From a virus (Duplodnaviria > Caudoviricetes), in IMG/VR virus record IMGVR_UViG_3300046703_000080, positions 1-61,421 of that record: a stretch of DNA of 61,421 bases; one strand, written 5' to 3'. Numbering within the stretch: the first letter of the stretch is position 1; each line of letters begins with the position of its first letter. The notes beneath the pieces are model-generated. The model was given only the letters and a program-made list of their open reading frames with translations. It did not search any database and had not been told where the DNA came from. This document shows positions 25,132 to 56,800 of this stretch, piece by piece. The position numbers were made by a program, and so were the translations under genes.

Positions 25132-25335
25132 CCCCCGACCACCAAACCGCCCTCAACAACTGCCTGCTACGCGGGCGCGAAGTCGCTCTAGGGGAGGCCG
25201 AACCTCCCCTGAGCACCTGCCGTGATGCGCTGCTCCAGATTTGGGAGACGGCGACTCAGACGGAGCGTGATCGGATTGACTCCGACTGCGACCTTGGCTC
25301 ACACACGAGTAGAAAATCTTGAGAGGAGAAATAGT

Positions 25336-25506: not shown

Positions 25507-25554
25507 AGCGGTAACCCGAAAGCCCATCGTCGTCGTGAGAAAGGAAACCGTACC

Positions 25555-25839: not shown

Positions 25840-26240
25840 AACTCTCTGCCAACTTCGACTCGGCCGAGTTCGCCTGTTCCTGTGGGTGCGGATACTCGAC
25901 GCCAGATCCGGCTCTGGTGGCCGCCCTGCAGACGCTACGTGACGCCGTGGCCTGCCCTGTGATAATCCTCTCGGGTTGCCGTTGCGCGCAACACAACGCG
26001 GCCGTAGGGGGCGCTGTCCACTCTCAGCACGTTCTGGGCAAGGCGGCCGACATCCGGGTTCCCGGCATGACGGCCCGTCAGGTCTACGCGGCGGCGCACT
26101 GCATCCCCTGCCTGCATGGGTTCGGGGTGTCGGATGAGGGGGACTTTTGCCACGTTGATATTCGGCAAGATCCGGCGCGGTGGTGTTATCTGAAGGGCGC
26201 AGAGTATCCCTGGCACGAGCAGAGGGAGGTAATTGCGTGA
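25836..26240 (+). CDS. endolysin, peptidase M15 family
   Basis: LSANF...EFACSCG, SGCRC..HN..VGGA..SQH..GKAADI, HVD. Confidence 0.92.
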   Translation: MKLSANFDSAEFACSCGCGYSTPDPALVAALQTLRDAVACPVIILSGCRCAQHNAAVGGAVHSQHVLGKAADIRVPGMTARQVYAAAHCIPCLHGFGVSDEGDFCHVDIRQDPARWCYLKGAEYPWHEQREVIA

Positions 26241-37702: not shown

Positions 37703-38662
37703 ATGGCCGTCGTTCAAGAGTTGGCGAACGAACTGTTGGGGTACGTTCCAGGTCTGTCCATCCTTCTGGCAGAGAAGATGGTGCAGGACACCTGGCGGAA
37801 AATCAGGGACTCCCGGCAATGGAGTTTTCTCCGTGTCGAGGGGTCCCTGGACGTTCCGGACCTCATCTCTACCGGGACCGTCACGGCCACTCAGTTCTCT
37901 ACCTCCGTGGTAGGGGATGCGGCGGCCGGGGCGGCTTGGGCGGCTGTCACTCTTCCGCTTCTCACTTTGCGGCAATTCCGGCTGGCGGCCGGGAGCCCGA
38001 TCTACAACATCACCGCCTTCGACGGCGCCGTCACCCTCACCCTGGACCGCATGTACACCGGGGCCACGGTGGCGGCTTCGGCTTACCAAATCTACCAGTG
38101 CTATTACAAGGTTCCAGTCAAGGACTTCTTGCGGTGGCGGTCCCTCTTCAACCCCAGCTTGGGCTATCGGTTCCGGCGGCGCAACATGCACCGGAAGAAA
38201 GAAGAGATCGACCGGCGCGACCCGCAGCGCAGTCACTTTGGGACTCCCATCTGGGCGGCAGCCTACAAGCATTCGAGCGACGGCTACCCGCTCATCGAAC
38301 TCTGGCCGCATCCGACTTCCTCGGGCAATTCACTGATGTGCGTGGCGCAGCGGCGCGGCGTGGACCTGGGCACCGCGGAAGAGGTCCCGGAGTGCATCCC
38401 TCACGACCTTCTGGCGCATGGCTCTCGGCTGCAAGCCTATGAGTGGGCGCTGGCGAACAACAAGAACGCGAACAAGGGACCGGAATGGTCGCGGCTCCTC
38501 AGCGTCATCTCTCAGGACTACGACGAGATGCTGCGGCGGGCGAGGGTCCAGGATGAGGAAACCTACCCGCAGAACTTCTCGGAGTTGGAGTACGACTCCG
38601 GACTGAGCGGACCGATAGATGCTTCATATTTGCAGGACCACGACATGTACTTCGTGGGATGA
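37703..38662 (+). CDS. head-tail adaptor-like protein
   Basis: RQWSFLR, GTV..T..ST.V.G insert, IELWP.P. Confidence 0.65.
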   Translation: MAVVQELANELLGYVPGLSILLAEKMVQDTWRKIRDSRQWSFLRVEGSLDVPDLISTGTVTATQFSTSVVGDAAAGAAWAAVTLPLLTLRQFRLAAGSPIYNITAFDGAVTLTLDRMYTGATVAASAYQIYQCYYKVPVKDFLRWRSLFNPSLGYRFRRRNMHRKKEEIDRRDPQRSHFGTPIWAAAYKHSSDGYPLIELWPHPTSSGNSLMCVAQRRGVDLGTAEEVPECIPHDLLAHGSRLQAYEWALANNKNANKGPEWSRLLSVISQDYDEMLRRARVQDEETYPQNFSELEYDSGLSGPIDASYLQDHDMYFVG

Positions 38663-38673
38663 AAGGAAAGAAT

Positions 38674-38895
38674 ATGGCAATCAGTAAACCTATGGGCAGC
38701 GTGCCGAGCGGCGCGGAGCATCTGCCTCTCAAGTTCAAGGATGACCAGATCGGCGGCAGCGCCGGGGCCAGCAAGATCGACAGCCCATTTTCCAAGGCTC
38801 TGCCCTTGAAGCCGGCCGACACGGACCCGGGCGGGAGCGCGGGCGCGAGCAAGATCGACTCGCCGTTCACCAAGAGTCTGAAGACGCCGAAGTAA
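38674..38895 (+). CDS. small protein with duplicated peptide
   Basis: LPLK..D...GGSAGASKIDSPF.K.L x2. Confidence 0.65.
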   Translation: MAISKPMGSVPSGAEHLPLKFKDDQIGGSAGASKIDSPFSKALPLKPADTDPGGSAGASKIDSPFTKSLKTPK

Positions 38896-38904
38896 GGGGG
38901 AACC

Positions 38905-40422
38905 GTGAAGCGGCTCCTGCACATCGGCGTCCTGGTTCTACTCCTCTGCCTGCCAATCCTGGCGCGTGAGAAGGCGCAGGGTTACTGCGAAAAGGGCGGG
39001 CAGACCGTCACTGTGTTCGGCTTGGTATCGACCACGACGGTCCAGCGTAGCTATGCCAGTTGCACGGTGACCGTCTACGCAACTGGCGGGACCACCCTGA
39101 GCACCCTCTACAGCGACAACTCCGGCACATCCAAAGCGAACCCCTTCACCGCGGACACGGATGGCTATTGGTCCTTCTACGCGGCCGATGGCCGCTATGA
39201 CGTCAAGTTCAGCGGAGGCGGGATCGCCACGCCATTCACCCGCTCTGACTTCCTGTTGGGAGGGTCTGGATCTGGCGGCGGCGGAATCACTAGCCTTGGC
39301 GGATTGACCGGGGCCACTCAGACCTTCGTCAACGATACGAACGTCACTATGACGTCGGCCACGACCGCGCACACGCTCGGGTGGACCGGCTTACTCGCTG
39401 TGGCGCGCGGCGGAACGGGGGCGGCGACGTTCACGGCGAACGGTGTTGTATTCGGAAGCGGTACATCCGCGCTCGGTGTGACTGCGGCCGGCGCGGCGTA
39501 CCAGCCTTTACGTGTTCCAGCGGGCGGCGGCGCACCAGCTTTCGGTGCTCTGAACATCAGCCAGGCGGCGGCAGTCACAGGTGCTCTCCCACTAGGGAAT
39601 GGCGGAACCGGGCAAATCACCGCGACGGCTGCCTTCGACGCACTTGACCCCCTCACCACCAAAGGAGACACCCTAGTTCACAATGGCACGAACAGTGTCC
39701 GTCAGGGCATCGGCACGAACTACTGGTTTCTCATGGCCGATTCCGCCCAGACGAACGGATTGAAGTGGGCGCAGATCACACTCTCGACGGCGAGCGTCAC
39801 AGGAGTCCTTCCGATAGCCAACGGCGGCACCGGGCAAACATCTCCAATTCCGGCATTCGACGCACTTTCCCCAAGCAGCATCAAAGGTGATCTGATCGTC
39901 AATGACGGCACGCACGATGTGCGAATGCCGGTGGGGGCGACTGACCAAATGGTCTTGGTCGTAGACTCCACACAAGTAAACGGTATCAAGTGGCAGTTAC
40001 CTTCTGCAGTGTGCAGAAAAGACACCGTATTATACACGAATACTGCCTTCGTGGCTGCGAGTACAACTGCTGATGTGACCCTCTTTACGCTTGGTCAATA
40101 CGAGAAGATGACTAGCGTAACCATCAAGCACAGCGCCCAGTTCTCGGACGGCGCCGGGGCGATGTCGCAGGTTACGGTTTCCTCCGGGAAGGCCGGAACG
40201 GTTGACTTTTACACGGCAGCGACGAACATCGGCGAGGCGACGGCGGTTGCCGACACAACCTACCTGGACACAGCCCTCTTCAAGAGCGGCACGATGGCGG
40301 CGGCTGGCCAGGCGGTCTTGGCCCATTTCATCGCAACCGGAGCAGATTTTGGGACAGGAGCGGCGACCTCTTTGACGGGTGGATCTTTGGACATTTGGAG
40401 CTGCTACGTGGCTATCCAATGA
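38905..40422 (+). CDS. tail fibre-like protein with N-terminal signal peptide
   Basis: MKRLLHIGVLVLLLCLPILA; NPFTADTDGYWSFYAADGRYDV anchor-type domain; repeated L.VA.GGTG and TTKGD fibre motifs. Confidence 0.8.
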   Translation: MKRLLHIGVLVLLLCLPILAREKAQGYCEKGGQTVTVFGLVSTTTVQRSYASCTVTVYATGGTTLSTLYSDNSGTSKANPFTADTDGYWSFYAADGRYDVKFSGGGIATPFTRSDFLLGGSGSGGGGITSLGGLTGATQTFVNDTNVTMTSATTAHTLGWTGLLAVARGGTGAATFTANGVVFGSGTSALGVTAAGAAYQPLRVPAGGGAPAFGALNISQAAAVTGALPLGNGGTGQITATAAFDALDPLTTKGDTLVHNGTNSVRQGIGTNYWFLMADSAQTNGLKWAQITLSTASVTGVLPIANGGTGQTSPIPAFDALSPSSIKGDLIVNDGTHDVRMPVGATDQMVLVVDSTQVNGIKWQLPSAVCRKDTVLYTNTAFVAASTTADVTLFTLGQYEKMTSVTIKHSAQFSDGAGAMSQVTVSSGKAGTVDFYTAATNIGEATAVADTTYLDTALFKSGTMAAAGQAVLAHFIATGADFGTGAATSLTGGSLDIWSCYVAIQ

Positions 40423-42398
40423 AACGATTTTTGCTGCTACTCGTGTGCGTGCCGTTTTGGTACGGCAGCGCGGACGCCGAGGTGTCGATCACCCCGAGCA
40501 CTCCGCCCGTGGTGAACGTGGGTACCACTTACCAGTTCTCCGCATCAGGTGGCACGGTTACATGGTCGCTTGCGTCGGGCAGTGCCGGGTCTATCAACCC
40601 CTCGACTGGCTTGTACACTGCGCCTAGCACGATTACCCCTAAGAACGTGCGGGCCGGGTGCCAACTCTTGCCGAACGATCACGTATTCAACACGCGCATC
40701 GACGCTCTCCCAAAGCACGCCAGCAGTGACACTTGGATGGCGACGATACCGGATATCGGAGCTACTATCCAGCCCAGCTTTGGACTCACGACGATTACCA
40801 ACGCCACGCCATCTGAAAGCATGGTGTTCCTTTACACGCCGTCGAACAACGGCTCGTTCCAACTCGCAGCCGCGCCTGATCTGTGGCGCGAGAACGGGTA
40901 TTACACTTCGCCCCTCGCGGAGGTTGATCGACACCTCACTGAGATCAACCGCGAGACTTGCACCCTGACGGACATCTATAACAACTACCCTGCGGGTACG
41001 CAGGGGGAGAGTTGCCCAACCTGCACGGCTCAGAGCGGGGTGTCTTATTCGGCCAACTCCTACGATCTGCCCGCCAGTGGAGGCACTGACGCCGCTAGTA
41101 TGTTTCTACAGCCGCTCATCTTGACACTGGCCGACATGCGCCAGGCCGAGATCACCCATGCAATGCGCGTGACTTTGAGCAATAACTACATCGACAACAC
41201 GTTTGTGTGGCCTGCGATGGCGAACGCCGGGGCATGGGGGTCAATCCCCTACGGCTCCCGTTTGCGGCTTAAATCTTCCGTGAACATCAGCGGGTACTCC
41301 GCACTGGCCCAGAAGGTTTTGCTGGCATGGAAACGCTACGGATTGATTGTCTCGGATGGAGGGACTACCTGGGGCGTGCAATCCGACATGGATGTGACCC
41401 AGGACGAGAGTGTACGCACTACATTGCAGGGGTTTGGCGCTATTCGCACTGCGGATTGGGAAATCGTGGACGAGTCTTCGTTGATGGTGAGCTCTACTTC
41501 GGGCCGGGTTAACCCTAGCAATGGGTACGTGACGCCAAGCGATTACGCGGTGGTAGTCGCCACAAACACAGAGAATGCGGAAGACACCGCCTCTATGGCC
41601 GTCTCCCTGCGGGCTGTGGTAGTGGGATCTGACGACCCGGCCATTTGGGTGCAGAGCGGTTCAACGTACACGCTCCCGGTTTGGGTGACAGGCGCAACAA
41701 ATACCGCCGTTACGTGGGCAACCTCGGCGGGAAGCATCACGAGCGGCGGGGTGCTCACCCCGCCCACTGTGAGCGAACCAACCGCAATCACGGTGACGGC
41801 CACCTCGCAAGCCGACAGTACTGCCGTGCGCGACTACGGGGTGACGGTGATGCCAGCGGGGCCGATTCGCATCGACGCGGGAAGCTCCTCGAACTTCACC
41901 GGCTCCGCCGGAACGTGGTGGAAAGACCAGGCGAGCATCGGGACCTACAATCATTTCGACTGCTCCTACCTGGGCCAGAACCCGTGGCCCCAAGACTACA
42001 CGGACATTGGCCTGTTTTACTGGCAGAACGCCTCCATCAATGACTGGCGGTACAGGTTCCATCTGGCCAATGGCACCTACAAGATCACTGCCTTATTTGG
42101 TGAGTGCGGAGAGACGTTACCCAATCCACAGCGCGTGTTTCACTTGGAAGTCAACGGGGTTCGGAAGGTCACGGACTACAACCCCGACGCAGCAGCGGGC
42201 GCGGCATCGACCCCCACGACGGTAGAAATCGCGGGTGTGGCGGTCTCGGACCAGAAGATCGACTTCACGATCCGCCGTCTGGTGTACGCCACCTACGCCA
42301 ATAACCCCGCAGGGCCAATGTTGAGCGGACTACTGATTGAGCAGACGGGTCCGTATCCAACGAGTATTCGAGGTAGGTCAGTGAGAAAAGGTCCATGA
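40419..42398 (+). CDS. Ig-like/malectin-domain adhesin with signal peptide
   Basis: MKRFLLLLVCVPFWYGSADA; VTWS...GSI...GLYTAP Ig repeats; IRIDAG, Y.F.LANGTYKIT..FGE, RVF.L.VNG malectin-like domain. Confidence 0.78.
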   Translation: MKRFLLLLVCVPFWYGSADAEVSITPSTPPVVNVGTTYQFSASGGTVTWSLASGSAGSINPSTGLYTAPSTITPKNVRAGCQLLPNDHVFNTRIDALPKHASSDTWMATIPDIGATIQPSFGLTTITNATPSESMVFLYTPSNNGSFQLAAAPDLWRENGYYTSPLAEVDRHLTEINRETCTLTDIYNNYPAGTQGESCPTCTAQSGVSYSANSYDLPASGGTDAASMFLQPLILTLADMRQAEITHAMRVTLSNNYIDNTFVWPAMANAGAWGSIPYGSRLRLKSSVNISGYSALAQKVLLAWKRYGLIVSDGGTTWGVQSDMDVTQDESVRTTLQGFGAIRTADWEIVDESSLMVSSTSGRVNPSNGYVTPSDYAVVVATNTENAEDTASMAVSLRAVVVGSDDPAIWVQSGSTYTLPVWVTGATNTAVTWATSAGSITSGGVLTPPTVSEPTAITVTATSQADSTAVRDYGVTVMPAGPIRIDAGSSSNFTGSAGTWWKDQASIGTYNHFDCSYLGQNPWPQDYTDIGLFYWQNASINDWRYRFHLANGTYKITALFGECGETLPNPQRVFHLEVNGVRKVTDYNPDAAAGAASTPTTVEIAGVAVSDQKIDFTIRRLVYATYANNPAGPMLSGLLIEQTGPYPTSIRGRSVRKGP

Positions 42399-42402
42399 AG
42401 AG

Positions 42403-43752
42403 ATGGCGTACGCGCACACCGCACTTTCGACGCTGATTGCGGCGCTGGCCGCGAGACTCCACGATACTGCCTACGTTTTCTGGACCGCCGCCGAGCTCCA
42501 AGCCTACCTCCTGGAAGCCCTACGCACCTGGAACGCGGCAGCGGCCTTCTACCGCGACCGGATGACGTTCTCGCTGACCGCCGGAACCTGCTTCTACGAT
42601 CTGGGCTCCGTCACCGGAACCTTGCTGCCGCGAACTGTCACCGATGCCGACGTGATGAAGGACATCGAGTATCACCTCCTGGAACCGGCGGTGGTCGCCA
42701 CCTGGACCGGCACGGAGCAGTTTGTCTTCGCCGACGTTGTGGATGCGCTCCAGCGCCGGCGCAATCAGTTCCTCTTGGAAACCGGCTGCGTTCTCACCCA
42801 CTCTACCCTGCCCTTGACCTCAGACTCCGCTGGACGCCTTGACCTGCTCGATACCGCCGTGGACGTGCGGCGGGCTGCCTTTGGGGACGCAGCCGGAGTC
42901 TACACGCGCTTGTGGCGTGATGACGAATGGGGAATGCAGGCCTTCTCCGCCGGCTGGGAAGGATCCCCCGGGCCTCCGAAGGTCTACTCGATGATCGCCA
43001 CGCCGCCGGTCCGGCTGCAGCTTTCTCCAATTCCCATCGCTACGGGCACCCTGGACCTGCTCACCGTGGACACCGGGGCGGCTCTGGACCCTGCCACAGG
43101 TGTCGTGTTGGGCGTGCCGGATGACTTCGCCTGGGTGGTCAAGTGGGGCGCCCTGGCGGACCTGCTGGGCAAAGACGGTCCAGCTCGAGATCCGGAGCGC
43201 GCGACCTACTGCGAACAGCGGTGGCTGGAAGGCATAGAGCTCGCCCGCTTCGCCACGACCGCCATCCAGGCCCAAATCAACGGCGTCAGGAAGACGATCG
43301 ACACGGTCTCAAACCTGGACAAGTTCCGCGCCGGCTGGCAGGGGGACACCGCCGCGACACCGGATGTGGTCGCCATGGCGGGCCTGAACATGCTCGCAGT
43401 GGCGGATCCTCCCGACGCCGCGCACAGCGTCACCCTGGACGTGGTTCGCAACTTCCCGGTCCCTGCAACGACGGCAGATCAGGTCTTGGTCGGCCGCGAA
43501 CACCTGGACATCATCCTGGATTACGCGGAGCACCTGGCGGCCTTCAAGATGGCCGGCGCGGAGTTCCAGGCCACAGCAGAGCACTACAAGCGATTCTTCC
43601 GGCTGGCCTCCGAGATGAACGACAAGTGGCGTACCGCGGCGGTCTTCGCCGACGTGCTGCATGACAGGACGCGGCAAGAGGAAGAGGCGGTCCCCAGCCG
43701 CAGGCCGGCGCAACCGCTGGGGCTCTCGGCGGACATGGACTCAAATGGCTGA
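42403..43752 (+). CDS. head-tail adaptor/tube protein with internal duplication
   Basis: LAARLHD...FWT..EL..YL.EA.R and a second similar unit; KWGALADLL.KDG. Confidence 0.65.
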   Translation: MAYAHTALSTLIAALAARLHDTAYVFWTAAELQAYLLEALRTWNAAAAFYRDRMTFSLTAGTCFYDLGSVTGTLLPRTVTDADVMKDIEYHLLEPAVVATWTGTEQFVFADVVDALQRRRNQFLLETGCVLTHSTLPLTSDSAGRLDLLDTAVDVRRAAFGDAAGVYTRLWRDDEWGMQAFSAGWEGSPGPPKVYSMIATPPVRLQLSPIPIATGTLDLLTVDTGAALDPATGVVLGVPDDFAWVVKWGALADLLGKDGPARDPERATYCEQRWLEGIELARFATTAIQAQINGVRKTIDTVSNLDKFRAGWQGDTAATPDVVAMAGLNMLAVADPPDAAHSVTLDVVRNFPVPATTADQVLVGREHLDIILDYAEHLAAFKMAGAEFQATAEHYKRFFRLASEMNDKWRTAAVFADVLHDRTRQEEEAVPSRRPAQPLGLSADMDSNG

Positions 43753-46630
43753 GTACGAACGCAAGACGCTGGAGTTCACCTGCCAAGGGATGAATCTGTC
43801 CCGGCCCGTGGACAAGCTGGGCCCGGGAGTCTATCGGTTCCTGAAGAACACTCGGCCAGGCGGCGACAACCAAATCTGGGGTCGCAGCGGAATCGTTGAA
43901 GAGTGCAGCAATCCGGCCACCGACGCCGTCCACACCATCAAGCGGCTTAATGATCCGGTGCCTTCTCCGGCGCAGTACCCGAACTCTTTCAGACCTGAAA
44001 TGCGACTAGTGGGCGCCGGTACGAAGGTCCATTACGCCCTCTTTGCGCTCAATGCCCTGCACGAGTTGGACATCGGCTACAGTGGAGATCCGCTTTCCAT
44101 CTGCGTGGTGAAGCCTGATCGTTCGCCCCGCCCCGTCGCCATCATTGCGGACTCCGTAAAGATGCGGAAGACGAGCACCTCTGCGGCGGTGTATCAAGTG
44201 GGGGTTCCCCCTCCCAACTTCGCCCCAACCGCAAGCTGCCACAACATTTACCCGGATGGACCGGACATAGGGACGAGCGGACTGCCCTATCTTTACCGCT
44301 TCGTGGCGAGACTCGCCGATTGGGACACCGGGGCACTGAGCGCGCCAGGACCGGCGATGCGCGAAGAAGACGGGTTGAAACCGGGCGGCGGAGGACTCGG
44401 AGATCCACCGGCCAGCAGCATCTTGGTCTTAGTCCCCGAGACGTACACCAACAGTGAAGTGAAGACCCTCGATGTGTACCGTTTCGGCGGGAGTCTCGCA
44501 GAGTGGATCTGGGTGGGTTCCTGCGACAACTACCTCGGCGCTCCTTTTACGGACCTCAATTCGGACGCGGATATTGCCGCCAATCCGCGGCTGGAGGTGG
44601 CACCGGATTCGATTCACTATCAACCCTTCCTGACGGTGGACGTACCGCGTTCTGGAACCTGTACCTGCAGTGGTCACACCGTCACATTGGTTGGTGCGTC
44701 CGGAGAGGACGTGTTCAAGGCGTACTCCGCGACCGGGGATGATCCGTACTACGTCGCAGGAAATCAGATTGTGATTGGTGATCGCCTCTGCACCTTCTAT
44801 AAAAGTCCAGCCTCGACAACCTCTGTGGAGGTGGTGGAGGACGTCAGCGACCTTACTGGAACGCTCGGTTGGCAGATGCAGCAGCCTGAGATGGCGCGCA
44901 CTTCCCTGCCCTTTCTCTGGGGTCCGTTCGGCGGCGGGGAAACCGGGACATTCCTGTTCGCCGTTGGGGATACCTTGCTGCCTGGCGGTCTCTACTGGAC
45001 CGAGGGCAATGATCCAGAGAGCCATCCGCCATCCAATGTCCTCGAGATCACCGAACCTACCGAGCGGCTTCAGAACGGCTGCATGTACGATGGGCGGGCC
45101 TACGTCTTCTCGACCGAGCGGATGTTCGCCATCTACCCCTCATTCGGGCAGGCATCGCAGTTTGTCGCGGTGGAAGTGCCTGGATCGCGTGGCCTCTACC
45201 GCCGCTGGGCGCTGTGCTCGAATGGTGCAGCGATCTTCTCGCGGGCGCGCGACGGGATCTATGCCTCAACCGGCGGCGAGTCGGCCTGCATAAGCAATGA
45301 CATCGCAGGCCTGTTCGGAAAGGAACAAAGCGCAGCCGCCTGGAATGCCTTCGACGGTGTGACCGGGTTGACCGTCCCTGTGCCGGACCCAGACGAAGAG
45401 GAAGCGGAGCGGTTGACCTTCGCGGACGGCTACCTGTACTGGGAGTTCATCGGGACCGATGGTGAACGCTACACCATGGTTTACGACGCCGATCCGCGCT
45501 CGCACGGCCGCGGCGACACCCCGGCGGGCTGGATCAGCCTGGACTCCTACACGCCCGGGGTGACACTGCACTACCAGGAAGAGGGCGCCAACGCGCACAC
45601 GGTCCTCCTGGGGACTTCTGACGGGCGCCTGTTCCGCTATGAGGGTTACTCGGACGGTGGCGTGGCGATCGAGGGAGCCGTGCGCGGCTGGGCCTTCGAT
45701 GCTGGGGATCCGCGCGCGCGTAAGCAGTGGGGAGACACCTGGCTGGACTTCGACTCGGACTGCGATCAGATCACCTGGAAGGTCGGATTCGACAACTTCA
45801 CCTTCTTCAGCGACCCGTTTGAGACGACGGTTGACCTCACCGGCCGCCAGCAGGCGATTGGCGACATCAACTCCGGGACCGGGCAGTACGCCGCCAACAT
45901 CGGTGTGGACCTCTCGTGGAGCGCCACGGTAGGCCAGCCGAAGGTCATCGCTTGGCAGCCGGCATGGCTTCCCAAACCCGAGGTCACCGCGAAGCGCGTC
46001 ACTGACTGGACCGACGACGGGTACGCCGGCGACAAGTTCTTCCAAGGTGTCATCCTGACCGGCGACACCTTGGGAGAGGACCGCACACTCCAGATTCAGA
46101 AGGATGGGGCGATTGCGTTGGCCAGTTCCCTAACTGTGAACCACGATGGCGAGCAGCAGAAAGCCTACAGCTTCGTGACGCCCTTCGTAAGCCACATGGT
46201 CCGCTTGCTGCCAACCGACGCGAATTTCTGGCGCTTGACGGGCGCGCGGTGGGTCTGGGAGCCGATGCCAGAACTCACCGAATACTGGCAGACCCAGAAC
46301 ACGAACCTAGACATGGACGGGTTCTTCCATCACCACCACGCCTACATAGCGCTCGCCTCCAGCGCCGCGGTGACTTGGGAGATCCGCGTCGACGGCGTTT
46401 CCTACACCTATACGATTCCTTCGACCGGGGGAGTTCCAGCCAAACCCCACATCATGCTCCAGCCGATGAAGGGCAAGATCGTGGAGTATTACCGGCTGAG
46501 TTGCCCCAGCGGATTCCGCCTGTTCGAGCGTGACTGCGAGGTCTGGGTGAAGCAGTGGGGTGCGGGCGGTCAGTACGTCAAGAAACTTACTTTTGGGGAC
46601 ACGCACAGGGTCAGAGGAGCGGTGATCTGA
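43745..46630 (+). CDS. tail nozzle/stabilisation protein (P22 gp10/T7 gp12-like)
   Basis: ~960 aa beta-rich; GMNL..P.D, LYWT.GN.PE, DAGDPRARKQWGD; position after adaptor. Confidence 0.7.
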   Translation: MAEYERKTLEFTCQGMNLSRPVDKLGPGVYRFLKNTRPGGDNQIWGRSGIVEECSNPATDAVHTIKRLNDPVPSPAQYPNSFRPEMRLVGAGTKVHYALFALNALHELDIGYSGDPLSICVVKPDRSPRPVAIIADSVKMRKTSTSAAVYQVGVPPPNFAPTASCHNIYPDGPDIGTSGLPYLYRFVARLADWDTGALSAPGPAMREEDGLKPGGGGLGDPPASSILVLVPETYTNSEVKTLDVYRFGGSLAEWIWVGSCDNYLGAPFTDLNSDADIAANPRLEVAPDSIHYQPFLTVDVPRSGTCTCSGHTVTLVGASGEDVFKAYSATGDDPYYVAGNQIVIGDRLCTFYKSPASTTSVEVVEDVSDLTGTLGWQMQQPEMARTSLPFLWGPFGGGETGTFLFAVGDTLLPGGLYWTEGNDPESHPPSNVLEITEPTERLQNGCMYDGRAYVFSTERMFAIYPSFGQASQFVAVEVPGSRGLYRRWALCSNGAAIFSRARDGIYASTGGESACISNDIAGLFGKEQSAAAWNAFDGVTGLTVPVPDPDEEEAERLTFADGYLYWEFIGTDGERYTMVYDADPRSHGRGDTPAGWISLDSYTPGVTLHYQEEGANAHTVLLGTSDGRLFRYEGYSDGGVAIEGAVRGWAFDAGDPRARKQWGDTWLDFDSDCDQITWKVGFDNFTFFSDPFETTVDLTGRQQAIGDINSGTGQYAANIGVDLSWSATVGQPKVIAWQPAWLPKPEVTAKRVTDWTDDGYAGDKFFQGVILTGDTLGEDRTLQIQKDGAIALASSLTVNHDGEQQKAYSFVTPFVSHMVRLLPTDANFWRLTGARWVWEPMPELTEYWQTQNTNLDMDGFFHHHHAYIALASSAAVTWEIRVDGVSYTYTIPSTGGVPAKPHIMLQPMKGKIVEYYRLSCPSGFRLFERDCEVWVKQWGAGGQYVKKLTFGDTHRVRGAVI

Positions 46631-50856: not shown

Positions 50857-51483
50857 ATGACCACCAAGCGCACCGCCGCGACGGCAACCGCAGTGCTCGC
50901 TGCGGCTGCGCTCTGGCTGTCTGGAGCGCCGAAGAACGACCGATCCGCGCCCAGCGTCTACATCCTCGCGCCGTTGACAGGAAGTACCGTCGATGGCGGG
51001 GTGAACATCCTCCTCTCAACGATGGACAACGTCACCGCAGTGCGGGTGGCGGTTGAGGTGGACGGGCAGCCAGTTTGCAACCTCCTCAATTCCGGCTCCG
51101 CCAAGGCGAAGAACTGGACGTGCTTTTGGGAATCCGCACTGGAAACCGAGAAGCAACGGACGATCCACGGTACCGCCTACGATGCTGCCGGAAACCACCA
51201 GTCAACCAGTCTCCAAGTGACCAGCGCGGCGATCCTGCTGCTCAGCGGCAGCGTGCCGGATGCCATCTGCGGCGAACCGTGGGTAGCAAATTTCAGGCTC
51301 ACGGGCGGAATGCCGCCGTACACCTGGAGCGTGATTGCGGGCGCGCTGCCGTCCTGGGCGACTTTCACGGCGAATGGCGCAACAGCCCAGGCCGCTGGAA
51401 CCGCGCCGATTGCGGGGCCGGATGGCACCTGTGATGGCCAAATGCTACTTGCCCGGCTGCGGGCGAGTCTGGGGATCACATGA
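50857..51483 (+). CDS. Ig-like domain protein with signal-like N-terminus
   Basis: APSV.I..P..GSTV, DNV....V.V.VDG, AYDAAGN; TGG.PPYTWS...GALP. Confidence 0.7.
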   Translation: MTTKRTAATATAVLAAAALWLSGAPKNDRSAPSVYILAPLTGSTVDGGVNILLSTMDNVTAVRVAVEVDGQPVCNLLNSGSAKAKNWTCFWESALETEKQRTIHGTAYDAAGNHQSTSLQVTSAAILLLSGSVPDAICGEPWVANFRLTGGMPPYTWSVIAGALPSWATFTANGATAQAAGTAPIAGPDGTCDGQMLLARLRASLGIT

Positions 51484-52012: not shown

Positions 52013-52633
52013 ATGGCAAGCGTAAGTTGGGCAGACCCATTTTCCAAAGGCAACACCAGCGCTGGCGAATCCTTCGAGGGGGGCAAGGACCCCTACAAGA
52101 TCGCGCCTGAGCCGGTCTCGGGCAACAGCCTGACGCAACGGCTTCGATCGCTCATGAACGTCGGCGGAAATTGGGCGCAGGAACTCAACACCGGCGGCAC
52201 GAGCAACGTGGGCGCGGCGACGGACTACTGGGGCAAGATCCTCAGTGGCAATCGCGCGGCGATGATGGAGGGGCTGGCGCCGGAGGTCAAGTCGATCCAG
52301 GGGCAGTATGCGAACGTCGCCAAGGCCAATTCGATGCTGGCTCCTCGCGGCGGCGGGCGTGCGACGGTGGCGGCAGAGGCCCCCTACAGCATGGCGTCGG
52401 CGATTCAGTCGCTCCTGCAGAGCGTCCGACCGCAGGCTGCCAATGCTATGTCGCAGATAGGGCTTCAGCAACTCGGGCTGTCACAGCAGGAGTTATCGAC
52501 GATCCTCCAAGCGGCGCTGGGTATGCGCGGGCAGGATCTCACGGAACGCGGGCAGAACATGGGACTCGGAAGTTCGTTGGGCACTGGTATCGCCAAGTTG
52601 GTTCCCTGGGATAAGATATTTCCCAGCTCATAA
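52013..52633 (+). CDS. putative ejection/pilot protein
   Basis: Gly/Ala/Ser/Gln-rich, MRGQDLT.RGQ; first of three size-ascending genes. Confidence 0.65.
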   Translation: MASVSWADPFSKGNTSAGESFEGGKDPYKIAPEPVSGNSLTQRLRSLMNVGGNWAQELNTGGTSNVGAATDYWGKILSGNRAAMMEGLAPEVKSIQGQYANVAKANSMLAPRGGGRATVAAEAPYSMASAIQSLLQSVRPQAANAMSQIGLQQLGLSQQELSTILQAALGMRGQDLTERGQNMGLGSSLGTGIAKLVPWDKIFPSS

Positions 52634-52645
52634 GGGGGTTGAATC

Positions 52646-53887
52646 ATGGGTACAGCAGGATTTTTTGGAGGGTTACTCGGCGGTATCGGCGACGAACTCC
52701 AGGTTCAACGTGATCGCAAGCAGAAACTCGACCTCATGGGCCGCCAGGCTGAGTTGGAGCACTGGGGCAAGTTATTGGAGAAGCCGGATGCCTTTGTCGG
52801 TGGTGCAGGTGGTCCAGCCTACACCGACTACCTGAACAGGTACTTCGATGTGCTCGGGGCGATGACTGGCAACAAGTCCGCTCGCAAACACCTCCAGCCA
52901 GCTCAGGACTTCATTCGCGCGATGGCCGACAAGGTGTACGCCGGAAGAGAAGAACAACCTTCGACTCCCGGCCCGATGCTTCAGCCGGACCCGGAGGCCC
53001 CTGCTGCCGTGCAGAACCTGTTGCAGTTCCAGTTGCCGGATGTGCCCGGCATCCCCGCGCGCAAGGGTCCGTGGTACACGCCGGAGGAACAGGCGGCCAG
53101 GGCGCTGAAGCTGAAGGCGAACGAAGAGATGGCTATGGGCCAGGCGAAGGATCTTGGCGAAATGCCGGGATTCCGTGCTCGGCAAGACATCCTCAGCGCG
53201 AATGCCATAAAGCTGGAGCAGGCGCGCGCAGACGGCCGCACCACAATCCTCCGGGGCGTTCCCGATCCCCGGCCGGGCGCGAACGAATGGGACTACGTGG
53301 ATATTCTGCAGTACGGGAACGGGACTCAGGAACTTGGCGAAGGTAGGCGCCCGGCTGCTATTGAGCGCGCCTACCAGACCGCTGCCTTCATCGCGACCGA
53401 GGAAGGTATTCCAATGGAGCAGGCTTGGGCGCGCGTGTGGGCGCAGCCGTACCAGGCTGGAGAGCAACGGTCCACGCTCAACGCGGCCCGGATTGAGGAT
53501 GTTCCGCAAATCAGGCGGCAACGAGAGGCGGCGATCGCCAACACCGGCCAGGGCATGACGGCGCGACAACTCACAATCTCTGACAAGGTTGCCGACGATC
53601 TGGCGGACGGAGTGCTCGCCGGCGTGACCGGAATTGATCCCAAGACGCCGATGAACGCAAGACTCGGTATGGCAATCGACAACCTGGGCGTGTGGTACAA
53701 GAACGATCCCCTTCTGAGCAGGCCCGAGGTCCAGGCAGCGGTCAAAGCAAGGCTCCTGGACCGGCAGGCAAGGGCAACACCGAGGCCGAAGGCAGGACTT
53801 AGTCTGAAGGGGAGAGTGCCAGGCAGAGGGACGGCGGGAGCACCGGCGCCGGCAGCACCTACGGCAGCAAGAAACCCCTATCGGTAA
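52646..53887 (+). CDS. putative ejection protein
   Basis: GFFGGLLGG N-terminus, helical. Confidence 0.65.
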   Translation: MGTAGFFGGLLGGIGDELQVQRDRKQKLDLMGRQAELEHWGKLLEKPDAFVGGAGGPAYTDYLNRYFDVLGAMTGNKSARKHLQPAQDFIRAMADKVYAGREEQPSTPGPMLQPDPEAPAAVQNLLQFQLPDVPGIPARKGPWYTPEEQAARALKLKANEEMAMGQAKDLGEMPGFRARQDILSANAIKLEQARADGRTTILRGVPDPRPGANEWDYVDILQYGNGTQELGEGRRPAAIERAYQTAAFIATEEGIPMEQAWARVWAQPYQAGEQRSTLNAARIEDVPQIRRQREAAIANTGQGMTARQLTISDKVADDLADGVLAGVTGIDPKTPMNARLGMAIDNLGVWYKNDPLLSRPEVQAAVKARLLDRQARATPRPKAGLSLKGRVPGRGTAGAPAPAAPTAARNPYR

Positions 53888-53888
53888 A

Positions 53889-56800
53889 ATGCCTGACATC
53901 CAGTCCATCCTCGATCCCCTTCCCGTTGATAAGGCGGTGAAGGCTCAGGTATGGGATGATTTTCACGGATCGGCTTCGCCCGAGGATTTCCAGTCTCGGT
54001 TCGACAGGCTGAACCTCCCGAAAGAGGTCAAAGCCCAGTTGTGGGACATGAAATTCTCACAGAACGCGCCCAGGGCTGCCAGGATCCCGGGCATGGAACG
54101 CCTCGGAGAACTACCGCCTCTCCCTGGAATCCCCCTTCCTGAAGAGGACACGGTCAGCAAAATTGCAAATATGACAGTGTTTGCGCCTGAACGCGGCGTG
54201 CAACAGGCCGTCGCAGGGGTTAAGCGTCTGGGTAAAAAAGGCGAACGGATGGCCGGCGCGAATGACATCATTGAGGGTGGCTTCGCTGCCTTGACACCCG
54301 CCGTGCTTGCTGCCCTCGCGGTCCACCCGCTGACTACCGGCCTTGCGCTTGGCACAGCGATGGCGATGCAGACTGGAGCCGAAAAGGGGGCCGAAGTAGT
54401 CGGCGCAAGTCCGGAAGCCGCGCGACTCACGGGGAATATCGCCGCGCTTGGAAGTGGGACTGCGGTAGCTTTGGGCCCAAGATGGGTCAGAGCACGCCGA
54501 CTTGGGCAGATCGGCGAAGTGTTGGGACGAGCCGAACCTAGATTGACCACCAGTCCGCAGGCCCGTATCGCCACTGAGGCACTCACGCAAGCGGCGCGTG
54601 GTGTTGAGGGTGGCGTATCAGAAACCGGAGCCCTCGGAGCCGCAGCGAGCGAACCCGCCCGCAAGGGTCTCGCCAAGACCGCTAAGGAATCGGCGATGGT
54701 CTTCCGCGACCAGTACCCGCCGTCGAAGTCAGCGCAGGAGAGCGCCCGGGTCTTCCAGGAACAGTTGCCGCCTGTGCCGGAAGTGCCGAAAGTGGAACCC
54801 CCCTTGCAGCCTCCGCCGGCCGGTGATACACTTCCGAAGCAGGAGCCACCCAATGTCGCAGGAGGAGCGGGACCAGGACGGCCGGACGGCGAAGGAGCGG
54901 GAGGAGTTCTACCGAAACTACCGGAACCTCGTCAACCAAGCGGTCCAGTCCGGCGCGGTAAAGAGACGTACATCAGCGTCCCAGAAACCAACGAAGTCCA
55001 GCGCGCCCACTACGAACTCCGCGAACTCGACGACGTAGTACCCTCACACGAGGGCATCACTTTCCGGCCAAACCCGGGTTACTGGTATAAGAATGAGAGA
55101 AACTACGGTAGTCCCGAGTACCAGGCAATCACCATCAAGCGGGCCCAAGAGTTCGACCCTGCGAAGGTTGTAAACGACAGCCCAAATCCCACCAGCGGAC
55201 CCACGATCATAGACCCAAACGGGAACTCCCTCTCGGGCACCAACCGCATTCAGATCCTCCAACGAATTTATGCCTTACACCCAGACCACGTAGAGGCGTA
55301 CAAAGCAAAATTGGCCTCAGACCTGCCGCACTACGGAATCGACCCCGCAGAGTTGGCGAACTTCAAGAAACCTGGTCTTTTTCGTGTTCTGGATGAGGAC
55401 TTTGACCCGGTAAAGGTCATCCGAGATTACAACAAAGACGAGGCATCTGCCCTTCTAGCCAATGAACGGGCAATGGCTGATAGCCAGCGAATCAGTTCCG
55501 GCACGCTTGAAGAAATGGCACGTCGGATGGAAGACCTGCCCGAAGGTGCGGGAATTGTTCGCGCACTGGAAGGCGAAGATGGCATCAGCTTCCTCAACCG
55601 TCTGATCGACGACGGGGTGCTCACTCGCGGGGAAGCCAACGGTCTCATAGAGAAGAAGCACGATGGTTCTGTTTTGAACAGCGTCGGCAAAGATCGCGTC
55701 ATCAAATTGCTCATTACCAGGATGTACCGTGGCACCGATCAGATGGAACGGACGCCTGCCACAATCCAGGGAAAGCTGGAACGCGCACTTCCCGGCATCG
55801 CCAAGATGGAAGGTACGGAAGGTTGGGACCTGCGGCCGATCATCCACAACGCCCTGGATGTGCTGGAAGAGGCGCGCGCCCGCGGTGCGAAGAACCTCGA
55901 CGACCTTGAGCAGCAGCAAGCCATGTTCGGCGCCGAAGTGCAAGCGCAGCCAGTCATGCTGGCGAAGGCGCTCCGCGACTGGGCCCCGACCCAAGTTCAG
56001 GACGCGGTGGCGAAGTACGTCAAGGAATCCGAGTTCAAAGGCGGATCGGTATTCGGCCAAGTCAGCCAAACAGACGCCTTCAAAGCGGCGTTCGAGCAGG
56101 AACCCCCGAAGAGAATCAAGAAGAAACTGCCGAAGGAAGAGGGGCCGCTGATCTTCGGCGGCGGCCGTGGTCCATCCGAGAAGGGTTCTTTCAGCCTCAC
56201 CCCCCTCGAGCCAAGCAATCCTCGCGGGGAAGAAACCTGGCTGGACCGCTACAAGAACTTCCGCGAAATGCGGATCTCCCCGCCTGAGCAGGAGAAACTC
56301 AAGACGGCCGTGCTCGACGTCGAGGCGCAGCGCGGCGCGGAAATCAACCGGCCCGTGCCCTGGTCCGAGGTCCTGGAGGCCGCCAAGGACATCGACCCTA
56401 CGCTGGTCAAGGAGGTCCAGTGGCAGGCTTCGATGGGAGCGCAGACGCAGGGCGCGCGCTACGCGATCGAGCAGCGGATCAACAGTCTGAACCGGGAAGT
56501 CCTCGAGCTTGACGACCAGATTCGGCGCGCCGATGAACTTGGACTCACCGAGCAACAGAAACTCGACCTGGACCGGCAGGCGCGCGAGAAGGAAACCGAC
56601 TACCGGGAGTACATCGGGCAGTGGGCGGGGATCTCGAGCATGGACGGTCGCAACCTCGCCATGCACCGGATGATGACCAACTCCACCTGGAGCGTGCCGG
56701 AGTGGCTGACAAAGGCCCGGCGCGCGGCTGCCCTGCCCCCTGGCGTGGACTTGCCGGAAGCGCAGGCCCTTCCTATCCGCAAGATCATCGCGGAGGGCCA

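Follow-up and report, generated by a model that had tools for sequence, protein, structure and literature searches.

The locus described here raises the question of whether a tailed phage can make its fibre in one cellular compartment and the rest of its particle in another. A protein in the tail module, which we call FIB, combines an apparent export signal with paired cysteines, and it very probably folds outside the cytoplasm, where the rest of the particle is built. The window, meaning the whole stretch of 61,421 nucleotides that was analysed, is the near-complete (98%) genome of a 61 kb podophage. We call the phage temperate because its integrase matches phrog_1 (E 3e-48). It is a soil phage and, by sequence comparison, kin of Tunturi 1 and 2 (PP887698 and PP885685), 63 kb podoviruses of Tunturiibacter that were the first cultured phages of Acidobacteria (PMC11924767, Microbiome 2025). 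As these relatives are described there, they resemble the window phage in genome plan, size and Acidobacteriota host. The core gene order of the window is shared with Tunturi_2, and BLASTP matches cover MCP (32% identity, E 4.7e-58), g319 (34%, 6e-32; the match is gp11, annotated 'tail protein'), g449 (27%, 1.3e-45), g989 (29%, 6e-76), g193 (E 1.6e-10) and the FIB N-domain (42%, 1.9e-12). The features that concern us are:

24467-26240: lysis system, holin-endolysin (endolysin match to phrog_894, E 3e-38, plus adjoining small membrane ORFs)
37703..38662, + strand: g319, a conserved leaderless tail-module protein, usually directly 5' of the fibre gene
38905..38964, + strand: FIB leader, residues 1-20, a Sec-type signal peptide with predicted cleavage between ILA and REK
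38965..39279, + strand: FIB N-domain, residues 21-125, a P22-type tailspike head-binding beta-sandwich that holds Cys28 and Cys53
39382..39996, + strand: FIB shaft, approximately residues 160-364, fibre repeats around GGTG motifs
39982..40422, + strand: FIB tip, residues 360-505, a jelly-roll with Cys370 and Cys500, followed by the stop
40419..42398, + strand: MAL, 659 aa, a secreted protein of host type whose translation is coupled to that of FIB
42403..46630, + strand: g449 and g989, core tail proteins that are conserved and leaderless, and the presumed docking site
50857..51483, + strand: a small Ig-domain protein of 208 aa with 4 Cys; its hydrophobic N-terminus is rich in Ala and may be a leader or a membrane anchor

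The original prediction had singled out FIB, MAL and the 50857 product as leader-bearing proteins. All three ORFs exist as it described them, with the Sec leader of FIB standing before a tailspike-type domain. The FIB ORF (38905-40422) encodes 505 aa and starts at a GTG codon. A GGGGG Shine-Dalgarno sequence lies at 38896-38900, four bases 5' of the GTG and just past the stop of the preceding gene. The protein begins with MKRLLHIGVLVLLLCLPILA, followed by REKAQ at the predicted mature N-terminus. Its leader is made up of the n-region MKR, the h-region LLHIGVLVLLLCLPILA and the site I-L-A before Arg, with a modelled helix at residues 2-14, and it is classed as a Sec/SPase-I leader by a home-made rule. 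This rule, which is not SignalP, looks for K/R in the n-region, then 9 or more consecutive uncharged residues that average at least 2.2 on the Kyte-Doolittle scale in a stretch of 8, and lastly a small residue at both -3 and -1.

The GTG start could indicate that the true start lies downstream or that the frame is mis-called, in which case FIB would be an ordinary cytoplasmic fibre. We consider such an artefact extremely improbable. A start further downstream is not viable because the next in-frame start-like codon is Val37, within the conserved domain, and the Shine-Dalgarno sequence is well placed for the GTG. Close homologues (82% identical) keep the leader with hydrophobic substitutions, and they are ATG-initiated with leaders of equal length. 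The architecture is common to 175 homologues, and the covariation of leader and cysteines presented below would be inexplicable if the leader were an error of gene calling.

Comparison across the family shows a real, conserved and cleavable-looking leader. It is flagged by the home-made rule in 175 of the 210 FIB homologues with an aligned N-terminus (median length 21 aa), and 172 of the 175 have K/R in the n-region. With this conservation, a start that does not lie further downstream and a mature part that opens with a tail-attachment domain, FIB withstands the refuting conditions on leader and start that the original prediction named. The residue at -3 is A in 83, L in 29, G in 10, V in 9 and S in 9, and that at -1 is A in 95, G in 30, T in 20 and S in 8. 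Positions -4 to -6 are often occupied by Pro or Ser, as is typical of cleaved leaders. Two other kinds of export signal were considered and rejected. A Tat signal peptide does not fit the n-regions of FIB, MAL and 50857, which have KR and not RR. Neither FIB nor MAL has a lipoprotein lipobox, as Cys15 of FIB is preceded by L-L-L, with no small residue, and Cys10 of MAL by L-L-V; the 50857 leader contains no Cys.

The N-terminus of FIB might also act as an uncleaved signal anchor, so that fibres would stay fixed in the inner membrane, exposed to the periplasm, and would be either collected at lysis or left in membrane fragments. Such a membrane-bound pool might concentrate fibres at holin lesions, and an N-terminus of this kind may be present elsewhere in the window. 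The 50857 protein begins with MTTKRTAATATAVLAAAALWLSGA, followed by PK. The original prediction credited it with a leader similar to the other two, and it is indeed flagged by the rule, but the similarity is limited: it is less canonical than the FIB and MAL leaders because it is Ala-rich and has a Pro after the best small-residue site. The same two properties make an uncleaved signal anchor the more likely reading for 50857. This protein matches Pfam Big_7 over residues 32-103 (E 2.7e-5, 25.2 bits against a cut-off of 24.1), and a search of 5.8 billion proteins returned no homologue of 114-364 aa. For FIB itself we regard a signal anchor as quite improbable. The overwhelmingly small residues at -3 and -1 in FIB and its 175 homologues, with frequent Pro or Ser at -4 to -6, argue against it. 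Leaderless homologues, moreover, start M-(E/Q)-(K/R)-L-Q-G, exactly at the predicted mature N-terminus of the leader-bearing forms. This start was verified on DNA in 15 viral loci, where stops or the lack of a hydrophobic frame are found upstream, and it suggests that a free mature N-terminus is functional, which again speaks against an anchor.

Mature FIB has four cysteines (28, 53, 370 and 500), mature MAL six (81, 181, 199, 202, 515 and 563) and mature 50857 four (74, 89, 138 and 192), which confirms the counts given originally, and these cysteines fall within single predicted domains. The neighbouring 46630 (F5/8 type C match) and 48287 (DUF2341 and Laminin_G_3) are leaderless, also as claimed. 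These two lectin-like proteins could bind a receptor without FIB, which counts against the explanation of FIB that we prefer. The weight of the argument rests on comparison within the FIB family, because cysteine counts in the window alone fail to separate the classes: leaderless g989 has 14 Cys and leaderless 46630 has 10.

Across the FIB family, at the level of sequence, presence of the leader goes with presence of the cysteine pairs. When 272 N-domains were pooled, the Cys28/Cys53 pair was present in 208 and absent from 19 leader forms, and present in 4 and absent from 41 leaderless forms (Fisher OR 112, p 2.7e-29), a table whose rows are not independent and in which one locus (L025) was later reclassified as leader-bearing, so that 3-4 apparently leaderless forms keep the pair. 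The 19 exceptions among 227 leader forms are a point against our explanation. With L025 counted as a leader form, and among the viral loci alone, 46 of 53 leader forms have the pair but none of the 15 leaderless ones. On a tree built with the two Cys columns removed, the leader-bearing member alone had the pair in 16 of 21 edge-disjoint pairs of homologues; the opposite was seen in 0 and no difference in 5 (sign test p 3e-5). Restricting the comparison to well-supported branches left 3 pairs, approximately 2 in the same direction and 0 opposite (p 0.5). The number of independent leader and cysteine switches is uncertain because the domain tree is short and weakly supported. Among leader forms, both cysteines were lost together in 8 cases and singly in 4, and 11 leaderless forms have a single Cys.

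The tip of the protein behaves in a similar way. The Cys370/Cys500 pair is found in 18 of 19 leader homologues with a tip domain, versus 1 of 5 leaderless homologues. The lone leaderless homologue with this pair starts within the N-domain, so its gene call is apparently truncated. Whole mature proteins have a median of 10 Cys in leader forms (even count in 137 of 175) and a median of 1 Cys in leaderless forms (even count in 15 of 29). The earlier inference that these proteins are exported and oxidatively folded is therefore strongly supported for FIB, and on this comparative evidence we consider it highly probable that FIB is both exported and oxidised.

We read FIB as the tail fibre of the window phage; no other protein of this genome has a podovirus tailspike attachment domain. 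The N-domain is modelled with pLDDT above 90, and comparison with VIA-align aligns residues 24-122 to the tail-complex spike of Pan3 (9vyg_o; Z 8.9, rmsd 2.5, 80 aa), followed by the spikes of Pam1 (7eeq_A, Z 8.1), Sf6 (7ukj_C, Z 7.5) and P22 (2vky, Z 7.4) and by 2xc1_B (Z 7.0). These Z scores of 7-9 are in the middling range, and the five independent spike entries cover the whole domain. Sequence-based matches are weak: a profile of the domain finds 9vyg at E 0.033 and 7eeq at E 0.99 in the PDB, and tblastn finds the ECOO78 and Alux-21 spike N-termini, which belong to tail depolymerases of E. coli phages, at E 1e-3 to 1e-4 (44% identity over 56-61 aa). A Pfam search with the domain gave no family at E<=0.01, and the domain was found in 4433 representative clusters at E<=0.001. 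In the leader-bearing proteins no other part is as well conserved (45% mean column identity for this domain); the distal modules vary, and some of the variable C-terminal modules of homologues are beta-helix or pectate-lyase Pfam domains. The shaft, of moderate pLDDT, matches phrog_32934 (E 2.5e-15, residues 215-364), annotated 'unknown function', and its repeated motifs are visible in the homologue alignment. The tip resembles 7dn2_1 (Z 9.7), 7eel_H (Z 9.1) and 8h89_J (Z 8.2).

The position of the gene also connects FIB with the tail. Leader-bearing and leaderless fibre forms share the slot between g319 and g449 (L007 versus L040) and, in other loci, the slot between g449 and g989 (L019, L028 and L033 versus L004, L022, L058 and L078). 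In related loci, leaders were flagged in 0 of 40 g319, 0 of 35 g449 and 0 of 27 g989 proteins. The g449 protein matches phrog_399, 'structural protein', and g449 and g989 are homologous to Tunturi_2 gp31 and gp32, both annotated as structural. From order and size we presume g449 and g989 to be adaptor and nozzle, given that their best PDB sequence match is at E 0.079.

FIB might instead be exported and never enter the virion. It would then be secreted together with MAL, late in infection or from a lysogen, to bind or process glycans of the host surface. Such a protein might mask receptors against superinfection, stop progeny from re-adsorbing to debris, loosen exopolysaccharide or serve as a decoy, and the particle would adsorb through the leaderless 46630 and 48287. 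We view this as unlikely, although it deserves serious weight. Export itself is well supported by the sequences, the leaderless F5/8-type-C and LamG proteins come after the core tail genes, and in a temperate phage expression from the lysogen is conceivable. By the home-made rule, leaders are carried by 1 of 254 core virion ORFs versus 54 of 239 variable tail-region ORFs, a specificity that favours the explanation we prefer. They are about equally frequent beside leader-bearing fibres (41 of 174 neighbours) and leaderless fibres (13 of 65; p 0.6), which weighs against it. About a quarter of these variable ORFs have leaders with either type of fibre, and a general toolkit of secreted proteins would look like this. 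Yet a free secreted protein needs no tail-attachment domain, and in FIB that domain is the most conserved part and the only copy in the genome. FIB also occupies the slot where leaderless relatives encode their fibre, and two leader-bearing loci (L007 and L019; 20 kb of each) show no other fibre-like gene in the tail module.

MAL provides a further point in favour of secretion without virion assembly, being a cellular-type, secreted and anchorless protein whose translation is coupled to that of FIB. The two genes overlap in the sequence ATGA, which holds the ATG of MAL and the stop of FIB. MAL begins with MKRFLLLLVCVPFWYGSADA, followed by EVSIT, and its leader (MKR, then FLLLLVCVPFWYG, then A-D-A before Glu) is likewise of Sec/SPase-I type by the home-made rule. 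The model (pLDDT 91.4) comprises the leader (1-20), an Ig domain (approximately 21-75), an uncharacterised centre (approximately 76-398), a second Ig domain (399-480) and a malectin-type domain (481-644). Residues 484-620 match Pfam Malectin (PF11721; E 1.3e-7, 32.2 bits against a cut-off of 23). Structural matches include 6d50_A (Z 17.6), Xenopus malectin 2k46 (Z 11.9) and Big_2 7quz (Z 11.0), and the TM score against human malectin 9ikp is 0.69. The best non-self homologue is 52% identical, and homologues lie on contigs of up to 2.2 Mb named Bryobacterales or Acidobacteriaceae and in only 10 viral loci. The evidence points to MAL being, by its sequence, copied from a family of proteins that Acidobacteriota cells secrete. 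The proposal that MAL is a virion part is unsupported, because it belongs to a cellular family, lacks a virion anchor and seldom occurs on viral contigs; a role as a secreted accessory protein fits better.

Known phage systems share individual aspects of FIB. The spikes of P22 (gp9), Sf6, Pam1 (7eeq) and Pan3 (9vyg) and the ECOO78 depolymerase gp42 also have an N-terminal beta-sandwich, a variable receptor-binding part and a gene in the tail module. The P22-type spike joins the particle last, and it can do so in vitro as well. All of these proteins start directly with the domain (their chains align from approximately residue 9-14) and fold in the cytoplasm, and ECOO78 gp42 is leaderless, whereas FIB and most of its family have a cleavable-looking Sec leader and Cys pairs. 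The adsorption protein pIII of Ff phages has a Sec leader and periplasmic disulfides like those proposed for FIB. Ff virions, however, are extruded through the envelope with all coat proteins membrane-inserted, unlike the cytoplasmic capsid and tail and the lytic release of the window phage. Leader-bearing 'moron' or exclusion genes also lie by the tail genes of other phages, such as lambda Lom and Bor, T5 Llp and Cor of phi80/T1-like phages. These export-signal genes beside receptor-binding genes are a plausible analogue for MAL and for an exported non-virion FIB. They encode small outer-membrane proteins or lipoproteins without a virion domain, in contrast to FIB, a full-length fibre that has an attachment domain and lacks a lipobox.

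Leader-bearing tail-module proteins are also found in cultured phages. Tunturi_2 gp12, gp13, gp14, gp16 and gp17 each have a leader, and they hold 2-34 Cys, or 10-34 if only the four large proteins are counted; its core homologues gp31 and gp32 are leaderless. Like FIB, gp12 has a leader, the N-domain and a Cys pair. It differs in its length of 1191 aa and its distal parts, and the pectin lyase gp14 follows; Tunturi_2 also differs from the window in that its five leader-bearing proteins follow one another and are separated from the core tail genes by the lysis cassette. The main text of the Tunturi paper contains no occurrence of 'mass spectrometry', 'signal peptide' or 'SDS-PAGE' and mentions no leaders (PMC11924767). 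In Cellulophaga phage phi10:1 (NC_021802), gp091-gp094 all have Sec-like leaders and carry the record annotation 'experimental MS/MS proteomics analysis', which according to the record was done on virions. As in the window, these are consecutive leader-bearing products of the tail module, among them a 'tail fiber protein' and a 'pectate lyase'. In contrast to the window phage, phi10:1 is a siphovirus of a Bacteroidota host, with 0-2 Cys in gp091-gp094, and comparison with window proteins found no sequence homology (best E 0.057). The MS/MS detection could reflect a co-purifying secreted protein.

We infer that FIB docks on particles at or after lysis, because it has a P22-type head-binding fold, the sole such domain in the genome, and a slot common with leaderless orthologues, and because leader-bearing tail-module proteins were detected by MS/MS in the unrelated phi10:1. 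In the proposed route, the 20-residue leader would direct FIB through the inner membrane of its host, a diderm of the Acidobacteriota, and signal peptidase I would cleave it after ILA. In the periplasm FIB would then form two disulfides, Cys28-Cys53 within the attachment domain and Cys370-Cys500 within the tip, and would fold and oligomerise there. The leaderless capsid, portal and core tail proteins would meanwhile assemble in the cytoplasm. With its partners in the other compartment, FIB would reach the tail only when the holin-endolysin system merges the two, or after release, and would dock through its N-domain like P22-type spikes in the last assembly step. MAL, a co-translated, host-derived and secreted glycan-binding accessory, would be exported in parallel, having no recognisable particle anchor. 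We judge this whole route, docking on the virion included, to be moderately likely.

We found no description in the literature of a leader-bearing, two-compartment fibre route. There is perhaps slightly more than an even chance that a large lineage of soil podophages uses two-compartment assembly, in which exported, disulfide-bonded fibres or spikes dock through a P22-type attachment domain only once holin lesions have joined the compartments. In such a lineage the route would have been switched on and off many times through the gain or loss of approximately 20 codons ahead of the fibre gene, with the Cys pairs following each switch.

The virus is of a temperate, short-tailed type. Completeness of the 61,421 bp IMG/VR record is estimated at 98%, nearly all genes lie on the + strand, and there are no tRNA genes in the 61,421-bp window. 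We regard the phage as temperate because it encodes a tyrosine-type integrase. The genes that place the region of interest within the genome are as follows.

13519-14754, tyrosine-type integrase (phrog_1, E 3e-48)
24467, lipoprotein-like gene upstream of the endolysin, its leader ending LALMGC
25222 and 25555, two small membrane ORFs upstream of the endolysin
25836-26240, endolysin (phrog_894, E 3e-38)
28955, terminase-like gene (phrog profile searches)
31655, portal (phrog profile searches)
35603, major head protein (phrog_9953)
38905-40422, FIB, a predicted tail fibre of 505 aa
40419-42398, MAL, a malectin-domain protein of 659 aa
after MAL, g449, a core tail protein (phrog_399, 'structural protein')
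46630, lectin-like protein of the F5/8 type C kind, after g989
48287, lectin-like protein with DUF2341 and Laminin_G_3, after g989
50857-51483, a small Ig-domain ORF of 208 aa

The genes from 24467 to 26240 are likely to form a lysis block. A Sec-like leader is also present on a 111-aa protein at 23211. After the head genes the order is g193, g110 and g319 (conserved), then FIB and MAL, then the core tail proteins g449 and g989. PDB sequence searches with g319, g449 and g989 gave no match better than E 0.079, and we infer 'adaptor' and 'nozzle' roles for the core tail proteins from order and size. The listed g989 start at 43661 gives a 92-nt overlap with g449 (43661-43752), Arg-rich in its translation. 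A likelier start seems to be the ATG at 43745 (MAEYERK), which overlaps the g449 stop. Immediately 5' of FIB, 38659-38895 encodes a 78-aa protein with two copies of the motif GGSAGASKIDSPF(S/T)K. The slot between g319 and the fibre gene holds an ORF of 60-100 aa in many related loci, and the 78-aa protein may act as a linker or in fibre assembly. Downstream of the lectin-like genes lie small tail proteins and three large proteins with no Cys. The Cys-free proteins are consecutive (206, 413 and 1685 aa; 52013-53887 and 53889-58946), and the sole match of the largest is phrog_5143, of unknown function. They occupy the position at which T7-like phages carry their ejected internal core proteins, and they look like internal virion proteins.

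FIB starts at a GTG codon four bases 3' of a GGGGG run, which itself abuts the stop of the preceding gene. Its N-terminus reads MKRLLHIGVLVLLLCLPILA, followed after the predicted cleavage site by REKAQ. The MAL ATG overlaps the FIB stop as ATGA, and MAL begins with MKRFLLLLVCVPFWYGSADA, with predicted cleavage before EVSIT. Both leaders are thus present as originally predicted. A third leader, claimed for 50857-51483, stands in part: the N-terminus, MTTKRTAATATAVLAAAALWLSGA and then PK, is hydrophobic, but it is weaker and Ala-rich and has Pro after the best small-residue site, and it may serve as either a leader or a membrane anchor. The mature proteins hold 4 (FIB), 6 (MAL) and 4 (50857) Cys, every set inside predicted domains, and the lectin-like proteins at 46630 and 48287 lack a leader, all in agreement with the original prediction. 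The start of FIB does not lie further downstream, as the next start-like codon is Val37, already within the conserved domain. Cys density inside the window was discarded as evidence of export: leaderless g989 has 14 Cys and leaderless 46630 has 10.

An AlphaFold model of FIB, built from a 50-sequence alignment (mean pLDDT 73), contains a helix at residues 2-14 corresponding to the leader, a confident beta-sandwich at 22-118 (pLDDT >90), and a second beta-sandwich at 360-505 that forms the tip. A flexible Gly-rich linker and fibre repeats connect the two. In structural alignments, residues 24-122 match the Pan3 spike (9vyg_o, Z 8.9, rmsd 2.5 over 80 residues), the Pam1 'tailspike head-binding domain' (7eeq_A, Z 8.1), Sf6 (7ukj_C, Z 7.5), and P22 (2vky, Z 7.4, with more P22 entries), Z values in a range that the alignment tool grades as middling. 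These solved matches are spike N-terminal domains resolved on podovirus tails. A sequence profile of this N-domain finds the same Pan3 and Pam1 chains in the PDB (E 0.033 and 0.99), and tblastn links it to tail depolymerases of cultured E. coli phages, at their N-termini (E 1e-3 to 1e-4), including ECOO78 gp42 and the Alux-21 'head-binding domain-containing protein'. The repeat region matches phrog_32934 (E 2.5e-15), and the tip resembles cement or decoration proteins with a jelly-roll fold (7dn2_1, Z 9.7; 7eel_H, Z 9.1). By tblastn, the window contains a single copy of the N-domain. Because of the spike-fold match, the sequence links, the phrog_32934 repeats and the single N-domain copy, we read the modelled FIB as having the plan of a podovirus tail fibre, including a tail-attachment domain, with a leader in front. 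Comparison with these spikes places the only tail-attachment domain of the genome at the very start of mature FIB.

A search of 1.84 billion representatives with the N-domain alone recovers 4433 representative clusters (E<=0.001), and 843 of 8000 scored candidates are FIB homologues. We classed a protein as a leader form if at least 14 residues with a hydrophobic core precede the N-domain, and as leaderless if it starts at most 6 residues from it. Among 210 database proteins with an aligned N-terminus, 175 have a leader, which bears out the conservation sought for FIB, 30 are leaderless and 5 are unclear. The 175 leaders have a median length of 21, K or R in the n-region in 172, and frequent Pro or Ser at -4 to -6. 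Counts at position -3 include A (83), L (29), G (10), V (9) and S (9), and those at -1 include A (95), G (30), T (20) and S (8). The von Heijne -3/-1 rule describes the classical signal-peptidase-I pattern, and judged by their residues the FIB-family leaders fit it. Comparison across the family thus indicates that the FIB leader is real, conserved and of a cleavable-looking Sec type. Leaderless homologues start M-(E/Q)-(K/R)-L-Q-G-(W/Y), their first residue coinciding exactly with the predicted +1. In viral loci this state was confirmed on the DNA, either by stops just upstream or by an upstream frame without a hydrophobic stretch. Residue +1 is Met in 11 of the 175 leader forms, and may be either a start codon kept from a leaderless ancestor or an internal start giving a cytoplasmic isoform of the same gene; in the window FIB, +1 is Arg and no start codon is found there.

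Single-protein scans of viral contigs yielded two weak loci for FIB and none for MAL, and alignment-derived patterns were used instead. In IMG/VR the FIB pattern returned 88 relatives; these were reduced to 77 loci, most of them on contigs of 56-69 kb, and the gene order in these loci is that of the window. Comparison of the loci shows leader-bearing and leaderless fibres in the same genomic slots. Between g319 and g449, the fibre of locus L007 has a leader and that of L040 does not; between g449 and g989, leaders are present in L019, L028 and L033 and missing in L004, L022, L058 and L078. By a leader rule of our own (K or R in the n-region, an uncharged hydrophobic run, small residues at -3/-1), 1 of 254 core virion ORFs in related loci carries a leader (portal 0/25, major head 0/39, g319 0/40, g449 0/35, g989 0/27), compared with 54 of 239 non-core tail-region ORFs of at least 120 aa. 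Because of this difference, the predicted export signals appear specific to the variable, receptor-side proteins. The idea that leader-bearing genes cluster beside leader-bearing fibres found no support (41/174 versus 13/65 beside leaderless fibres, p 0.6). One locus (L048, 10001-14200) has tandem fibres, the first leader-bearing with the Cys pair and the second leaderless with an N-domain interrupted by an inserted domain of roughly 60 residues; this split form also occurs in L041, L056, L068 and L069.

The N-domain of FIB contains Cys28 and Cys53, and the tip Cys370 and Cys500. Among the database proteins, 163 of 175 leader forms and 4 of 30 leaderless forms have the Cys28/Cys53 pair. After one locus (L025) was moved to the leader class on account of a leader-like upstream frame, the counts for viral loci are 46/53 and 0/15. 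Pooling the database proteins with 68 viral loci gives 272 rows, with the pair in 208/227 leader and 4/45 leaderless forms (Fisher odds ratio 112, p 2.7e-29; as related rows are counted, p is not a probability of independence). Three 'leaderless with pair' proteins begin with 3-4 residues resembling a leader end, or inside the domain, and may be truncated gene calls. Contrasts on well-supported branches of the tree (treekit) number only three and are underpowered, with about two in the same direction and none opposite. A wider pairing took edge-disjoint leader and leaderless rows over the whole best tree, with the two Cys columns left out. It gave 21 contrasts, with the pair in the leader member alone in 16, the reverse in none and no difference in 5 (sign test p 3e-5); the underlying tree is of a domain of about 100 residues with weak topology, and the number of independent events is uncertain. 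On this tree the leader/leaderless switch is clearly not confined to one clade. Where leader forms depart from the pair, both Cys are missing together in 8 and singly in 4; a single Cys is found in 11 leaderless forms. Of the proteins with this tip domain, 18 of 19 leader forms and 1 of 5 leaderless forms have the Cys370/Cys500 pair, the leaderless one being a protein that starts inside the N-domain. Whole mature proteins have a median of 10 Cys in leader forms, with an even number in 137/175, and of 1 Cys in leaderless forms, with an even number in 15/29. Joint Cys loss, the tip pair and the even counts may be taken as further signs of disulfides. In these sequence comparisons, leader and Cys pairs of the FIB family go together.

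A phage collection search identified cultured relatives. Tunturi_1 and Tunturi_2 are 63-kb podoviruses that grow on the soil bacterium Tunturiibacter psychrotolerans X5P2 (Acidobacteriota). Tunturi_2 matches the window major head protein (32% identity, E 5e-58), g319 (E 6e-32), g449 (E 1e-45), g989 (E 6e-76) and the FIB N-domain (42% identity). Sec-like leaders occur on its gp12 (which has the N-domain), gp13 ('tail fiber protein'), gp14 ('pectin lyase'), and gp16 and gp17 ('virion structural protein'), and these proteins have 10-34 Cys in the four large ones and 2 in gp16. Leaders are lacking from its core homologues gp31 and gp32. A term search of the main text of the describing paper (PMC11924767) returned no mention of a leader or signal peptide on Tunturi proteins and no occurrence of mass spectrometry, SDS-PAGE or tail fiber; as far as that main text goes, the leader feature is thus unreported and the paper gives no virion proteome. 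Representative genomes contain eight loci with the FIB-alignment pattern. One, on the chromosome of Tunturiibacter gelidiferens M8UP28 (L098), is a related prophage copy of the N-domain with leader and Cys pair, and another, in a Bryobacterales MAG, is leaderless and lacks the first Cys. From the Tunturi relatives and the copies in Acidobacteriota genomes, we infer that the host is most likely a diderm Acidobacteriota bacterium.

Leader-bearing tail-module proteins are also seen in Cellulophaga phage phi10:1 (NC_021802), where gp091, gp092, gp093 ('pectate lyase') and gp094 ('tail fiber protein') all carry Sec-like leaders and the record notes 'annotation based on experimental MS/MS proteomics analysis'. 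They resemble FIB in this respect but are not homologous to window proteins (best E 0.057). The comparison shows only that, for one cultured tailed phage, virion preparations yielded leader-bearing tail-module proteins.

The MAL model is confident (pLDDT 91.4) and consists of a leader, an Ig domain, a 320-residue central domain, a Big_2-like Ig domain and a malectin-type carbohydrate-binding domain. Its structure matches include 6d50_A (Z 17.6), Xenopus malectin 2k46 (Z 11.9) and 7quz (Z 11.0). Among 8000 scored proteins, 351 are homologues at E<=0.001, with at most 52% identity, mostly on cellular contigs of up to 2.2 Mb named Bryobacterales or Acidobacteriaceae, and a crude hydrophobicity measure classes at least 78 of 120 N-termini as hydrophobic. 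Only 10 viral loci have a MAL relative, usually behind other leader-bearing genes. MAL contains no attachment domain, and from its sequence relationships we take it to be a secreted accessory protein of host origin, translated together with FIB, that binds and possibly also processes glycans. The central domain (residues 76-398, 40644-41612) is confidently folded in the model. It found no match among solved structures in Foldseek and wide structural lists, which were dominated by the Ig and malectin parts, and none in NCBIfam. Its relatives in the Atlas are uncharacterised bacterial clusters from several phyla, the family's partner domains are of surface type, SLH, Ig, TIG and Y_Y_Y, and Asp, His, Arg and Trp columns are invariant across 41 homologues. 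The domain may be an undescribed glycan-active enzyme. The small ORF at 50857-51483 has a Big_7 Ig domain and was an orphan in the protein database search.

The main rival to a virion role is that FIB and MAL are both secreted tools, serving in receptor masking, slime clearing or as decoys, and never become part of the particle. The attachment domain is strongly conserved in FIB, however, and a free protein would not need one. We favour a route in which FIB would be exported and cut after ILA, and in the periplasm would form its two domain-local disulfides and oligomerise. Head and core tail, which lack leaders, would assemble in the cytoplasm, and FIB would dock only after holin lesions join the compartments, or after release. 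Since P22-type spikes are the last component added and bind spike-less particles in vitro, and holin holes are wide enough to let the compartments mix before failure of the outer membrane, such late docking is mechanistically reasonable by analogy.

Textbook tailed-phage assembly is wholly cytoplasmic, and our literature searches found no description of Sec-leader tail fibres or spikes of tailed phages. We rate the podovirus tail fibre as a known kind of object and the proposed export route as what is new; on the boldest reading, it would be a categorically new assembly route. New from the window are the leader/leaderless orthologue comparison with its Cys covariation, the shared genomic slots, and the near-absence of leaders from core proteins. 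With leader/leaderless orthologue pairs and the cultured Tunturi 1/2 – Tunturiibacter system, the question is directly testable. Leader-bearing tail-module genes are usually annotated as morons or host genes, and host-range predictors and phage engineering presume cytoplasmic folding of receptor-binding proteins; if the route is true, annotation practice for such genes would change. Widespread periplasm-maturing tail fibres would be a new step in virion morphogenesis, would explain the disulfide-stabilised, Cys-rich receptor-binding proteins of soil phages, and would link lysis timing to burst infectivity.
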